Source of the DNA: Eledone cirrhosa
Taxonomy: Eukaryota
Assembly: GCA_964016885.1 (NCBI GenBank)
Contig: OZ024741.1
Location: forward strand, 80,910,001 to 80,974,000
Length of the DNA: 64,000 nt
Direction of reading: 5' to 3'
The notes below the pieces were generated by a model. It was given only the letters and a program-made list of their open reading frames with translations. It was not told the DNA's origin and made no database searches. A program made the translations under genes and the position numbers. This document shows positions 331-63,223 of this stretch, piece by piece (position 1 is the first letter of the stretch; every line of letters starts with the position of its first letter).

Positions 331-749
331 AAGCCATACAAAACTGAAAAGGTGGTCAAGAAAGCATTAACCACCCAAGCCAAAAACCAAATCAAGCTAA
401 ACAGGTCAAAACAAAATAAATGATAAAAAATAAGTGTTAACTTTATATATATATATATATATATATATATATATATATATATATATATATATATATATAT
501 ATATATATATAAAGTTAACACTTATTTTTTATCATTTATTTTGTTTTGACCTGTTTAGCTTGATTTGGTTTTTGGCTTGGGTGGTTAATGCTTTCTTGAC
601 CACCTTTTCAGTTTTGTATGGCTTCTTAACACATTGTTTAGCTCTGGTTTTTAACTATTGAGCACTTAGCCAGTATCATTTCTGATTTTTGCGTTTCGCT
701 TCGCTTTTCCTGCCCGCCGAAAATGCGATTCTCGCTGAATCTTTATTTG
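331..749. mobile_element. Inverted-repeat insert in (TA)n, probable PLE pLTR end: arms 331-444 / 511-624 around a (TA)n centre, tail to ~749
   Basis: Arms are exact reverse complements (ORF track gives near-identical peptides on both strands); (TA)n on both flanks; same arm+tail layout as HHR-bearing inserts, but no HHR seen here. Confidence 0.6.
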
Positions 750-800
750 TATATATATATATATATATATATATATATATATATATATATATATATATAT

Positions 801-1213
801 AAGATCAAAAGATGGTTAAAAGAGTTTTCCATGTATTTTATTATGCGCATTTCAAAAACAAATATCATCAAGCAATAACATTTGCGTTTTCGTCAGATAA
901 AATAGGGAGACATGATATGAAGGTTAAAACACACTTGTGAATAGTGCAGTTTTAAATCAACATATAAATTGCACTATTCACAAGTGTGTTTTAACCTTCA
1001 TATCATGTCTCCCTATTTTATCTGAAGAAAACGCAAATGTTATTACATCATGATATTTGTTTTTGAAATGCGCATAATAAAATTCATGGAACTCTTTTAA
1101 CCATCTTTTGATCTTATATATTATTATTTATACTCCAATCCTACAAACTGTATAGTGCTACTTATCCAATATTTGCATTGCTTTATTGTACTACAATAAA
1201 ACTCACCTCCTAC
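801..1213. mobile_element. PLE pLTR hairpin insert (arms ~801-948 / 970-1115, tail to 1213) with a hammerhead motif in each arm
   Basis: TTTTAT CTGAAGA ... GAAA TGCGCA TA ATAAAA at ~1016-1082 and mirror copy (CTGACGA) on minus; (TA)n flanks. Confidence 0.75.
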
Positions 1214-1744
1214 ATATATATATATATAATATATATGGGATGACGCTGGTACGATGTGTGTATTTTTTTTTTAAATGCAACACGTGCTTCTAGTGATTCA
1301 CAGACTTGCATTTGCTGTGTAAACACAGATAGTTAAATCTTCTCTTTTGCTGACGATACGGGATTTGACTACTGTGATTTACCGATTGATGGTGAAATAT
1401 ATTTCTTTAATTAGTGAAATATATACAAAGGAGATTAATCATTTTTGAAGTTCTCGTTAAACTTTAATTAGTTACCTATCTAGCTGTGTGTGCTTTCACT
1501 CTTTACAAATTATCTCCTGTGATTGTTTCATATGTTTATTTTATATATATATATGTCAATCGATTTCTAGTTGGTATAAATGCTCAGATCTATTCATTGG
1601 AATCTTTGAGCATATTCTACAAAGGCTATGGCACATGTCTCTCAGACATGACACTCTTAATTTAATTTTGGTTATATATATATATATATATATATATATA
1701 TATATATATATATATAAGGAATTTATATCTAGTAACATTTATAT

Positions 1745-2120
1745 ACACACAGATGCATATCAATGCTAGCAAATATATAGGTTTTGTCTTATTAACAATG
1801 TGGTTCAATGCATGGGGTTGCAGAACAATAATAATAATATGAGAGACGTAAAATAAGAAAATTATAAAATTAACTTACTTACTAAAATCCAGTCCACGCT
1901 TCGCTATTTCCATTCCACTGAATTATTTTTTAAATAAGTTTCCAGTGTCCTCGCTATGCCTGGAGACCTATACGGAAAAAGACTTTCCTGATGACGGAAT
2001 GATTTTCTATATGTTTCTTCGGAAAATATATTTACTCCATTCCAGAAACTAATTAGTTGGAAGTGATTTTTTAGTAAGTAAGTTAATTTTATAATTTTCT
2101 TATTTTACGTCTCTCTCATA
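1745..2120. mobile_element. PLE pLTR insert with ~50-bp inverted arms (1840-1888 / 2069-2120) and degenerate HHR; sister copy at 63331-63775
   Basis: GACGTAAAATAAGAAAATTATAAAATTAACTTACTTACTAAAA and its reverse complement; CTGATGA...GAAA at 1988-2025. Confidence 0.6.
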
Positions 2121-2270
2121 TATATATATATATATATATATATATATATATATATATATATATATATATATATAAGTATTGCAGCAAGAAAATATAGACT
2201 TGTGCTTATATATGTAAAAGGCAAACAGAAATTATAAAACAAATGACACAGTATACGGAAGAAATATAAA

Positions 2271-60540: not shown

Positions 60541-60766
60541 TATATAGTGGTAGAACACTGGAAGGTAATATCCGTAGTGGTAGAGCACTCAGTCCATGGG
60601 ACGAGTTAGGTAGAAGTGGTTACACAACAGTTAGTTCACCATACCGGAAACAATTGTTCTCAGTATGGTGAACTAACTGTTGTGTAACCACTTCTACCTA
60701 ACTCGTCCCATGGACTGTGTGCTCTACCACTACGGATATTACCTTCCAGTGTTCTACCACTATATA
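60541..60766. repeat. Near-perfect palindrome of the pLTR end + tail of the adjacent PLE
   Basis: 60541-60645 vs 60661-60766; apex GAAACAATTGTTCTC. Confidence 0.85.
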
Positions 60767-61409
60767 TAGACACATACACATTTACGCGCATACATTAACA
60801 CACGTATACATACATACACACGCACACATATATACATATACACATGCATAAAATGGTTGAGTGAGTTTTTCTCACGCTAAGATAACAAAATAAAAAAGAT
60901 ATTCCTGCAACATATGCACAAAATAAATACCTCTGAGGCATTTACAATGCAGCGTGTTTTGGTTTTAAGCTACTGTAGATCGAAGAGAATCTCTCACACT
61001 AAGTATTGACTAAAAATCAAGGCAAATCCATATATATGTAAATATATATATATATATATATATATATATATATATATATATATATATATATATATATATA
61101 TATATATATAAAATATTAAACAAATAATGAATAAACAATGAGACAGTTCCTTATATTAAACAAAAAAAGTTCATTATTTAACGATCGTTTCTAGGATATA
61201 TATGTGTTAGAATTGGCATGCATATTCAACAGATCTATGTACAAAATTATACAAAATTATACAAACTATCAAGATTAAATATACATACCAACACACATAT
61301 ATATATATATATATATATATATATATATATATATATATATATATATATATATATATATATATATATATATATATATATATATATATATATATATATATAT
61401 ATATATTAT

Positions 61410-62814
61410 TAAAAGGAATTCCAACTTTGTCTGATTTACACGTTTTATTTACTATCCTTTAAAATTATAATGGTATTAGAATGAAATAGTATGGTAGAAT
61501 ATTAAATGTTAAGTCTTAATTGAACAAGTACGTTCATGCTTTCACAATCGTCAGGTTTATATTCTGTGGTCACAGTCAAGTTTGCAATTTTCAACTGTAA
61601 TGAGATGGGTAAATTTTGTGCCTTATATACAGTGAAATGTGGATACAGAATGCTAAATTTTGCAAACTGTATTTCGACCAATCGGTGTGTAGTTTCACTG
61701 GATTACTAAAGCTGATTGGTTTAGGCGTCACGGTTGGTTGAGCATGTCTAACGACTTCTATTTTACCCTATCCAAAGCATCAATTGTTTTGCTATTTTTA
61801 GAAATGATGAAAATAGCATTTTCTAGTAATCATCACCATCAACATCACTTTTATTATTATTATTGTTGTTGTTGTTGTTAGTGGTGGTAGTCGACATGGT
61901 CGTAGTCATAGTCATAGTAGGAGTAATCCCCCATTATTATTGTTCATTTAGCTTGGGTTGGAATTTATCAATAACATTCTTTTCTTTGATTTTTCTCTTG
62001 ATTTCACTTGGGCTGTGTAATTTGTAGAATGGAAATATTATAAATATTTTCTTACCACATGTTGCTAGATGGTTACTCAGGGGTATCTGACAGACATTTG
62101 GGTCTCTGATTTGCTGTCGGTGCACCCGTGCACGTTCCGATAGTGCATTTCCAGTTTGACCGACATATAGTTCTTCACAATTCGGGCATTTAATGCAGTA
62201 AATTAGATTTCTGCTTTTGCAGTTCATATTTGTATTTGGGAATATTTTTCCAGTTTTTGTGTTCATATATTGATCGGTGTGTATGGATTGACATGTGCCA
62301 CATCGACTATCATTGCATTTAGATACAGTGAATGATTGGTCTTTGTTGTTAAGGTCAAACTTTGCTTTTGTTTGTAATTGCTTCAAATTTTTCGGCTGTC
62401 TTTACTAAGAGTCAAAGATTATAAACACCCAGACACCCATCGATATCTGAATTTTAAGTCGTGCCATCCACCTCATACAAAACGCAACATCCCATACTGC
62501 CTAGACAGAAGAATTTGTACCATTGTAGAAGATACGAATACCAGGAACAAACGCCTAACAGAACTGAAAGAATTTTTGCACAAACAAAAATACCCATCTC
62601 TACTTATAGAAAATGGCATACAGCGGGCTATAAAAATACCTATACAACAACTTAGGACAACCCAAGGAAGAAGAAACCAAGAACTGGTCATACCATTTAT
62701 AATGACACACAACCCATGTCACCAGAATATCTTCAACACTGCCAAAGCAAACCTACCGATCATTGCTCAAAGTAATGAATTAAAAGGCTTAATCACAAAC
62801 CGATCTTTGACTCT
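61410..62814. mobile_element. Neptune-like PLE with inverted 5' segment: EN on minus (61937-62419), RT thumb on plus (62420-62814)
   Basis: KCNDSRCGTC..NCKSRNLIYCIKC..YVGQT; YKHPDTHRYLNFKSCHPPHTKRNIPY; decayed HHR on minus at 61522-61558. Confidence 0.87.
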
Positions 62815-63000
62815 ATATGTATGTATATATATATAATATATATATATAATATATATATATATATATATATATATATATACATACATATATATATATATGT
62901 GTGTGTGTGTGTGTATGTATATATACACACACACATATAATATATATATATATATATATATATATATATATATATATATATATATATATATATATATATA

Positions 63001-63223
63001 GAAGTAGTGACACAACAGTTAGTTCACCATACTGAGAACAATTGTTTCACCTTAGCGGATCTTCATCTCGTACCCCATGCATTATATGTGTGAAGGTCCG
63101 TTAAGATGAAACAATTGTTCTCGGTATGGTGAACTAACTGTTTTGTTAGTACTTCTACCAAACTCGTCCCATGGACTGAGTGCTCTACCACTACGGATAT
63201 TACGTTCCAGTGTTCTACCTCTA
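63001..63223. mobile_element. pLTR hairpin with tail, family of 59299/60541; another fragment at 39005-39070
   Basis: Arms 63001-63065 / 63091-63156, tail ACTCGTCCCATGGACTGAGTGCTCT.. Confidence 0.78.

Follow-up and report, generated by a model that had tools for sequence, protein, structure and literature searches.

A duplicated bulged hairpin tied to the insertion endpoints of Hydra-clade Penelope-like elements, a candidate anchor for reverse transcriptase

The reverse transcriptase (RT) of Penelope-like elements (PLEs) is the sister group of telomerase, and how these elements choose their internal start sites, and what decides the presence or absence of a tail, has to our knowledge been open since Penelope was described. 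The window analysed here, a 64,000-nt stretch of the Eledone cirrhosa contig OZ024741.1, raises this question because an initial annotation reported a short stem-loop just beyond a fixed endpoint in the tails of several PLE families and proposed that it anchors the RT. Is this hairpin real, which elements carry it, and does it bear on where reverse transcription starts? The elements are ordered as hammerhead, short endpoint, first hairpin, long endpoint, second hairpin and start codon, and the window holds the following features.

641..666, plus: tail of an ORF-less family, its first hairpin with 2-nt bulge and 5-bp upper stem
1022..1159, plus: minimal hammerhead at 1022, with a decayed first hairpin at 1131-1159
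1800..1826, minus: first hairpin, 1745/63331 family, pair 2 compensated to U-A
2470..2496, minus: first hairpin, 39311 family, not listed initially
7254..7402, plus: hammerhead at 7254 and first hairpin at 7360-7402 with 6-bp upper stem
12326..12347, plus: first hairpin of a young Hydra family
27174..27209, minus: first hairpin, coordinates hand-counted, not listed initially
31055..31114, plus: long-loop hairpin immediately beyond an inverted repeat's short arm
31387..31507, minus: Hydra family with variant hammerhead at 31507 and its first hairpin at 31387-31435
33929..33965, minus: hairpin of a family without assignment, not listed initially
34196..34315, minus: hammerhead at 34315, short endpoint and first hairpin at 34196-34218
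39311..39337, plus: first hairpin, Hydra family
40760..40786, plus: first hairpin, 39311 family
41079..41216, plus: subfamily of the 12326 family, with hammerhead at 41079 and its first hairpin at 41191-41216
41743..41765, plus: first hairpin, subfamily of the 12326 family
54211..54237, plus: first hairpin, 39311 family
59300..60555, minus: broken ORF of Hydra type (from RT to endonuclease) with 3' UTR, a hammerhead near 59364 and the short endpoint
60584..60606, minus: first hairpin with 1-nt bulge
63162..63184, plus: first hairpin with 1-nt bulge, 60584 family
63697..63723, plus: first hairpin, 1745/63331 family, one substitution in the 3' arm
63866..63892, minus: first hairpin, 39311 family, not listed initially

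All 14 sites cited by the initial annotation were recovered, coordinates and strands included. The 14 sites represent 8 families, and repeat copies inflate the counts that follow. A search of the window for the strict paired motif together with the 3 nt of its 3' flank gave 12 occurrences, far above the 0.72 ± 0.77 (maximum 3) seen in 40 dinucleotide shuffles done block-wise; 600 kb taken from elsewhere in the genome gave 46, compared with 10.0 after shuffling (6 shuffles). Chance, named at the outset as a possible refutation, is excluded. The version with a mispaired A-C is not enriched (1 against 0.55 in the window, 5 against 6.7 in the other stretches), and the 4-bp stem without flank shows only a slight excess in the window (86 against 69) and is at chance outside it (846 against 827 in 600 kb). 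A loose structural descriptor is unspecific alone, with 337 matches in 1.4 Mb against 166 in the reversed sequence; its matches followed by (TA)n number 105 against 14. The 1745/63331 tail, in which no motif had been evident, carries one in which U-A replaces C-G at pair 2; it is intact at 1800-1826 (minus) and bears one substitution in the copy at 63697. The site at 1131, initially called degenerate, is a decayed copy of a family that has an intact copy elsewhere (L098). The hairpin motif is real and richer than first reported, and no published description of it was found in the literature searched. Copies beyond the initial list lie at 2470-2496, 33929-33965 and 63866-63892, all minus, and at about 27174-27209, also minus. 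A match at 18030-18051 falls inside a LINE ORF and was taken as chance.

The hairpin consists of a 4-bp lower stem, a 2-nt bulge on the 3' side and a covarying upper stem of free sequence. Upper stem and bulge both lie inside what had been regarded as a loop of free sequence; the loop proper is variable and reaches about 100 nt. Lower stem and 3' flank are near-invariant, and because the lower stem is unchanged in 64 of 68 metagenome motifs it shows no covariation in that set. In these 68 unique motifs, selected by the lower stem alone, upper pairs 1 to 4 were paired at frequencies of 0.96, 0.67, 0.79 and 0.62, against 0.76, 0.41, 0.39 and 0.39 after shuffling, an excess seen only with a 2-nt bulge and not with bulges of 0, 1, 3 or 4 nt. 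The gap-free alignment A3 gave a covariation of 0.43 against 0.13, a value reached by 0 of 500 shuffles (best slid control 0.19), while the short-loop alignment A4 was weak, being matched by 10 of 500 shuffles with its second upper pair broken in 8 of 17; these shuffles take no account of relatedness between motifs. RNAalifold returned the same bulged fold unprompted. Compensatory covariation is seen in the metagenome pairs and in A3, and weakly in A4. The hairpin table from the genome itself was hand-picked, and some of the search patterns preselected the start of the stem. Taken one at a time, the hairpins show weak folding (z from +0.4 to -2.2), and several have a different minimum-energy fold; the bottom pair of the second hairpin is mismatched in two families, and the counts of G.U against A.C (12 against 8 and 6 against 3) do not settle the strand. 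Rfam covariance models gave 0 matches at E <= 1 in 10 of 77 metagenome loci, and among the 150 of 317 matches listed for the window all were below the gathering score and mostly microsatellite-driven, in scans that also missed hammerheads and hence are of low sensitivity. A MAFFT alignment of all 64 motifs misplaced the 5' arm and was left out of the counts. Pairing of the motif with hammerhead stem III, in which the same four starting bases occur in only 9 of 31 loci, was rejected because stem III varies while the motif does not.

The stem had been placed 4-16 nt beyond the endpoint. The link to the endpoint stands and the range is tighter: in 122 of 149 insertion ends the (TA)n run begins 4-10 nt before the stem of either of two hairpins, the other 27 ends falling elsewhere. 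The second hairpin lies just past the long endpoint in read-through copies, and could not be seen initially because it is beyond the end of every solo insertion. It was identified in L213, L216/L217, L077, L086 and L096 and in degenerate form in L125, loci found via their ORF and not via the motif, and also in four further families. Spacing from stem to stem varies from 68 to 116 nt while the ends keep their offset of 4-10 nt from the stems. TAT occurs at -10 to -3 of the stem in 49 of 65 cases against 18 ± 3.5 expected, and UAU at the position of the insertion end matches the (TA)n target; loose (TA)n ends are also seen in sequencing contigs (L217:3674, with the stem at 3677).

Among the window families, that of 12326 has a full element in L213 with second hairpin and a 738-aa ORF, that of 31387 has full elements with second hairpin in L216 and L217, and that of 39311 has ORF start and second hairpin in L077 and ORF end in L129. 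Read-through copies of the 7254 family (L378-L380) have a second hairpin and a Hydra-type ORF, those of the 60584 family (L364, L372-L375) a long-looped second hairpin that likewise has a 1-nt bulge, and those of the 641 family (L323, L324) a second hairpin lying 6 nt beyond the long end. The 1022/1131 family is contiguous with a Hydra-type ORF in L065, with no read-through copy seen; the 1745/63331 family is an ORF-less tandem unit of about 520 nt with a hammerhead; and no link to an ORF was established for the 31055 family or for the hairpin at 27174. The hairpin at 27174 is downstream of a hammerhead-like core at 27301, and the inverted arm with its hammerhead at 34479 (plus) ends before the hairpin at 34196-34218. 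The ORF, 3' UTR and hammerhead at 59300..60555 tie the 60584/63162 family to the Hydra clade within the window itself.

Beyond this genome, 44 metagenome Hydra loci extend 150 nt or more upstream; 27 of them have two hairpins, 12 have one and 5 have none under strict anchors, the second being mostly 19-55 nt before the ORF start. The motif is present in published coral, sea-cucumber and copepod consensi, the sea-cucumber consensus also carrying the second hairpin. Its 7-nt 3' half was counted 54 times in the 6.7 kb that lie upstream of ORFs, compared with 7 times in 102.6 kb of ORF; antisense copies number 0 in both. The motif is always in the sense of hammerhead and ORF, with the hammerhead 37-116 nt upstream of the hairpin, and three ORF-less families retain both hairpins.

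The carriers had been described as unrelated PLE families, which does not hold: six of the eight window families are contiguous with Hydra-clade ORFs, the other two being an ORF-less derivative and a family without assignment. Their Hydra-clade proteins are about 40% identical, and the assignment rests on protein motifs: RxRW[KR] (the RWK-type N-terminal motif) in 68 of 78 aligned proteins, DK[TS] (DKT-type) in 77 of 78, both types being seen in L213, L217, L372 and L378, and, at the C terminus, a GIY-YIG domain with a CxCx5C linker in 73, CxxC in 76 and CxH, a loose pattern, in all 78, with no CCHH. The hammerhead in the pLTR and the insertion into (TA)n that characterise the clade were found as well, in a check that covered families other than 641 and 31055; two families have variant hammerhead cores. 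Other PLE clades have tails without this motif. It is absent from the read-through regions of one Neptune-like and one Nematis-like family, clade names that we presume from linker motifs, and the published Naiad and Chlamys consensi, which may stop short of a comparable site, give one unpaired chance match each to three 9-mers. Extending the motif to the Nematis-like family was rejected, the sole locus that pointed that way (L052) being chimeric with a different family. The hairpin is a hallmark of the Hydra clade, reflecting descent under structural constraint, and is not pan-PLE. Searches found no relatives in viral contigs, no match by sequence among solved structures and nothing in Pfam for the Hydra protein; the best fold match of the predicted protein is TERT (E 2e-8, TM about 0.33).

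What remains of the initial proposal of a cis-acting RNA anchor for the RT is an element that is structured, tied to endpoints and covarying; the claim of unrelated carriers is lost. Such an element is most simply read as a putative RT anchor setting the priming register. We give a probability of roughly 0.65 to the reading that each hairpin anchors the RT and sets its priming site, the tail being the spacing between the hairpins. The two bulged hairpins between hammerhead and start codon would each be bound by the RT-endonuclease on the template RNA, the protein recognising the sequence of lower stem, bulge and flank and the shape of the upper stem, and a bound hairpin would fix the priming site a few bases 5' of itself. 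There the nicked (TA)n target would pair with UAU through 2-6 shared bases and be extended towards the 5' end of the RNA. Use of the first hairpin would give a tail-less end, and use of the second would copy the first and so produce a tail as long as the distance between the two anchors. The second hairpin would itself not be copied into insertions, and it is never seen in a solo insertion.

The hairpins could instead act in DNA, the GIY-YIG endonuclease recognising them in single-stranded cDNA or in another intermediate made on a tandem template and cutting the TA-rich bases 5' of them, so that the two ends are two resolution sites. The wobble counts fix neither strand nor nucleic acid, a TA-rich site would suit the taste of the enzyme as well as it suits primer pairing, endonuclease-mediated resolution of the tail is proposed by Craig 2021 (PMC8557442), and PMC11167929 reports that, with plasmid DNA, the endonuclease of D. 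virilis depended on the tail. Action in DNA is nonetheless unlikely, given that the two ends of the Anolis element are RT starts on RNA in vitro (PMC11167929), that the motif keeps to the sense of hammerhead and ORF, and that a variable loop of up to about 100 nt fits a folded RNA better than duplex DNA. The identical geometry of the ends would also follow if cleavage of the transcript, whether by a host nuclease or by the protein of the element, took place immediately 5' of either hairpin and the RT then started at the UAU 3' end; the hammerhead 37-116 nt upstream implies that these RNAs are processed, but the main Anolis substrate is unprocessed RNA on which initiation is internal (PMC11167929), and we consider such processing quite improbable.

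An internal promoter box, or a translation element of the 5' UTR, with an incidental link to the endpoints would suit the placement of both hairpins in the 5' leader, where most second hairpins are 19-55 nt from the ORF start, and the residence of promoters in PLE pLTRs. This is very hard to sustain when three ORF-less families keep both hairpins, when the ends follow each hairpin despite varying spacing and when a promoter box has no need of a covarying upper stem; a plain DNA promoter site, another refutation foreseen initially, is unlikely. Neutral homology of related families, aided by chance, has in its favour that the carriers belong to one clade, but it is largely refuted already and barely credible, since flanks and loops are unalignable between families with proteins about 40% identical, while two copies, bulge size and pairing persist in the metagenome loci and in the coral, sea-cucumber and copepod consensi. 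Returning to anchoring of the RT, a wider version can be advanced only tentatively, with the odds against it: every PLE clade may have its own twin anchor with telomerase-like primer alignment, and the Hydra hairpin may be a portable 25-nt RT start signal that works on any RNA and lets ORF-less retrozymes hitch a ride.

The first in vitro PLE system (2024) located start sites and, in the accessible part of PMC11167929, no signal for them. New here is the second hairpin past the long endpoint which, if the RT reads it as proposed, would explain the long-puzzling PLE tail; a duplicated hairpin at fixed offset also makes the choice of start site directly testable. It would give the sister group of telomerase a concrete RNA anchor and primer-alignment site to compare with telomerase RNA, and offers a candidate recognition signal for retrozyme mobilisation. 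The hairpin marks Hydra-clade boundaries for annotation, and it could serve as a handle for programmable RNA-templated insertion.

Bulged or simple stem-loops that an RT recognises, and that non-autonomous partners can reuse, are known from LINE and R2 3' UTRs and from hepadnavirus epsilon. Unlike these, the Hydra hairpin is present in two copies in the 5' leader of the next tandem unit, the proposed priming is internal and insertions contain no copy of the distal anchor. The published Hydra clade (PMC8557442) shares the ORF diagnostics, hammerhead and (TA)n targeting, and its consensi contain the motif; the available part of that paper gives ORF motifs and hammerheads and names no conserved hairpin, duplication or endpoint link. 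In vitro work on PLEs is limited to the Anolis Poseidon element PAc, which starts reverse transcription at two internal sites that bound the tail and needs a template reaching over 50 nt 3' of the distal start (PMC11167929). It resembles the Hydra elements in these two starts, in its AT-rich target and in requiring template 3' of the start. However, it belongs to a different clade, its starts are placed in an AC-rich stem loop said to be without target homology, its tail is 30-40 nt against 43-116 nt between the hairpins of Hydra elements, no conserved or duplicated anchor is named in the accessible part of the paper, and the printed 361-nt template, inspected by eye, has no motif match in the required region (PMC11167929). 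Animal non-LTR retrozymes, ORF-less tandem hammerhead units, a description that the 1745/63331 family fits, are proposed to be moved by PLEs; the available parts of this literature (PMC7229834; bioRxiv 10.64898/2026.07.22.740005) name no recognition signal, whereas the ORF-less units here keep both hairpins. With telomerase RNA (PMC4993307) the Hydra hairpin would share a short alignment region that pairs with a repeat primer and an adjacent protein-bound helix. It has no pseudoknot, P6.1-like loop or repeat addition, and, lying 3' of the alignment site and without a junction, it corresponds to neither TBE nor CR4/5. The template-adjacent helix of telomerase is 5' of the template and stops copying, whereas the Hydra hairpin would set the start, on a template that, unlike telomerase RNA, is the element's own transcript.

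The motif is a bulged hairpin, with a 4 bp lower stem, an upper stem of no fixed sequence and, between them on the 3' side, a 2 nt bulge whose first base is U; the loop measures from 3 to about 100 nt, and the 3 nt of 3' flank are conserved. The upper stem and bulge lay concealed within what the initial annotation had called the loop. All 14 sites it named were found, with strands as given, and its observation of the motif is confirmed and extended. In the window, which is (TA)n-rich with abundant short inverted-repeat insertions, the strict motif occurs 12 times against 0.72 in block shuffles, and in another 600 kb of the 3.0 Gb host genome 46 times against 10.0; a mispaired version was not enriched over shuffles in either. 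Given that the motif sites are repeat copies, the analysis was shifted to the level of families, named by window position. The features concerned are as follows (L numbers are fetched loci):

60555-59300, minus strand: Hydra-type ORF linked to a motif-carrying family
61937-62836: Neptune-like family (also L218:1097-1190)
34784-37100: Nematis-like family (also L385)
1719-2111 and 63330-63800: 1745/63331 family (also L368-L371, L376, L377)
512-750: two related ORF-less families (also L308, L323, L324, L356)
2760-3080 and 28600-29100: hammerhead-like family
9417, 33509, 59112 and 4494: two more hammerhead families, each with a single endpoint
15497-18034 and 44625-45389: other non-LTR retrotransposon ORF fragments, unrelated to the hairpins

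Minimal type I hammerheads were located by script in 140 stretches of 10 kb picked independently of the motif, and clustering of the downstream sequence gave 22 families with at least three members, a few of them not genuine hammerheads. Many hammerhead families have two endpoints at (TA)n, with the motif on the hammerhead strand just beyond the short endpoint. Endonuclease fragments upstream and full-length copies contain ORFs with the Hydra-clade diagnostics defined in the available text of Craig 2021 (PMC8557442) and, judged by these ORF motifs, the carriers probably belong to that clade. The carriers had been described as unrelated Penelope-like element (PLE) families; however, six of the eight window families join Hydra-type ORFs, one of these links lying inside the window itself, and one Neptune-like and one Nematis-like read-through copy are without the Hydra motif. 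The 641 family had no ORF among the loci seen, the 31055 family is without a link to ORF or clade, and two carrier-family proteins share 40% identity. Hydra, though described as a small clade, makes up a major class of the host genome's repeats, and the Hydra family behind 12326/34196 (L171-L200, L213) is very young, with at least 150 endonuclease matches, those listed all being 100% identical.

An unbiased test of the fold was provided by 77 metagenome loci with Hydra-type proteins (N-terminus detectable in 59), in which motifs chosen by lower stem and flank only gave 81 instances, 68 of them unique, two mis-anchored ones being kept in the counts. Upper pairs 1-4 were paired in 0.96, 0.67, 0.79 and 0.62 of these motifs, against 0.76, 0.41, 0.39 and 0.39 when shuffled, an excess seen only with the 2 nt bulge. 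In a gap-free alignment of 11 equal-length motifs a pair counter gave covariation of 0.43 versus 0.13, reached by 0 of 500 shuffles, which disregard kinship among motifs, and slid controls stayed at or below 0.19; RNAalifold predicted the same fold. The result from 17 short-loop motifs was weaker. Among 30 hand-picked copies from the host genome the lower stem varied too: pair 1, where pair 2 was usual, was G-C in 15, A-U in eight, U-A in two, G.U in one and mismatched in two, and pair 2 was once U.G and once U-A. The pair 2 U-A case is the 1745/63331 family, which does carry the motif, though the initial annotation had not found it evident there. Single hairpins fold weakly, wobble counts are compatible with either strand, and Rfam scans of low sensitivity gave no match in 10 of the 77 metagenome loci and none above gathering score among the 150 of 317 window matches listed.

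A second hairpin lies a few bases beyond the long endpoint and shortly 5' of the start codon in partial-tandem read-through copies. It was first found in ORF-located copies (L213, L216, L217), then in L077, L086 and L096 (degenerate in L125), in two ORF-less families, and in the 63331, 63162 and 7360 families, for which search patterns preselected only the start of the stem. With strict anchors, metagenome loci having at least 150 nt upstream contained two copies in 27/44, one in 12/44 and none in 5/44, counts that include some redundant loci and several misses recognised by eye as variants. The 3' half of the motif is about 100-fold denser 5' of ORFs than within them, with none antisense, upstream or within ORFs. 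Among six published consensi labelled Hydra (Craig 2021, supplement file S7), sea-cucumber Hydra-1_Ajap has both hairpins, Hydra-2_Amil and Hydra-2_Ajap one each and the copepod consensus two variants, while Hydra-1_Amil stops short of the site and Hydra-1_Obim is ambiguous; Naiad and Chlamys consensi searched with three 9-mers gave one unpaired match each.

When element ends adjoining (TA)n, taken from both the window and the 1.4 Mb sample, were mapped to read-through references of eight families, the TA run started 4-10 nt 5' of hairpin 1 or 2 in 122 of 149, mostly with 2-6 bases common to element and target, while the spacing between hairpins varied from 68 to 116 nt. A second pLTR copy stops 2-11 nt before a hairpin in 8 of 16 metagenome rows not cut by a contig end, and in sequencing contigs loose (TA)n ends lie 3 bases 5' of hairpin 1 of L217. 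TAT stands at -10 to -3 in 49 of 65 metagenome motifs, compared with 18 when shuffled and 9-18 in windows farther upstream.

The distal hairpin predicts the end of an insertion without being copied into it, and so has to work through the template or an intermediate. In the simplest model, to which we assign a probability of roughly 0.65, the hairpin on RNA anchors the protein and sets the priming site: the element protein would bind one hairpin on the template RNA, the nicked (TA)n end would pair with UAU immediately 5' of it, copying would begin there, and the hairpin used would determine whether the insertion is tailed or tail-less. This agrees with the available text of Frangieh 2024 (PMC11167929), in which two internal starts bound the tail and sequence 3' of the starts is required. 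The same end geometry would also result if the endonuclease resolved the ends at the DNA level, as it may, or if an RNA cut adjoining the hairpin created them, which may likewise occur. Roles in translation or as a promoter fit poorly, however, as the hairpins are kept in ORF-less families. The original proposal of a cis-acting RNA element for reverse transcriptase anchoring or priming register probably holds in kind but not in breadth.

Other families of the window have arrangements of their own. The Neptune-like family is without the Hydra motif, and in its single read-through copy, inspected by eye, a hairpin follows each endpoint with a 3' arm common to both, possibly a clade-specific twin anchor. 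The Nematis-like family forms complete tandem units of 4.1 kb, and its distal end has TAT in common with the target and a different, perfect 6 bp hairpin a few bases beyond. The retrozyme-like 1745/63331 family is an ORF-less tandem unit of ~520 nt with a hammerhead and both hairpins, its read-through pattern giving 2110 matches, counting overlapping ones. The units of the two 512-750 families (~500 nt) also have both hairpins, hairpin 2 with an insert of 76-108 nt and U-A as pair 1. Arms of the hammerhead-like family end in or near the motif 3' half, without a matching 5' arm, and no tail was seen in 1.46 Mb for the two families with a single endpoint.

Stem-loops that recruit a reverse transcriptase are already known. 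The hairpin motif is not described in the available portions of the literature, including PMC8557442, PMC11167929, a 2026 retrozyme preprint, PMC4209133, PMC7229834 and PMC3846280, and a twin anchor that defines a clade and accounts for the tail appears to be new. The predicted structure of a Hydra protein (pLDDT 91.6) has TERT as its best fold match, at a low TM-score, which supports kinship and says nothing for hairpin binding. As in telomerase, a primer-alignment site would adjoin a bound helix; the geometry of the Hydra hairpin differs from that of the telomerase template boundary element, as far as the latter is set out in the available text of PMC4993307.
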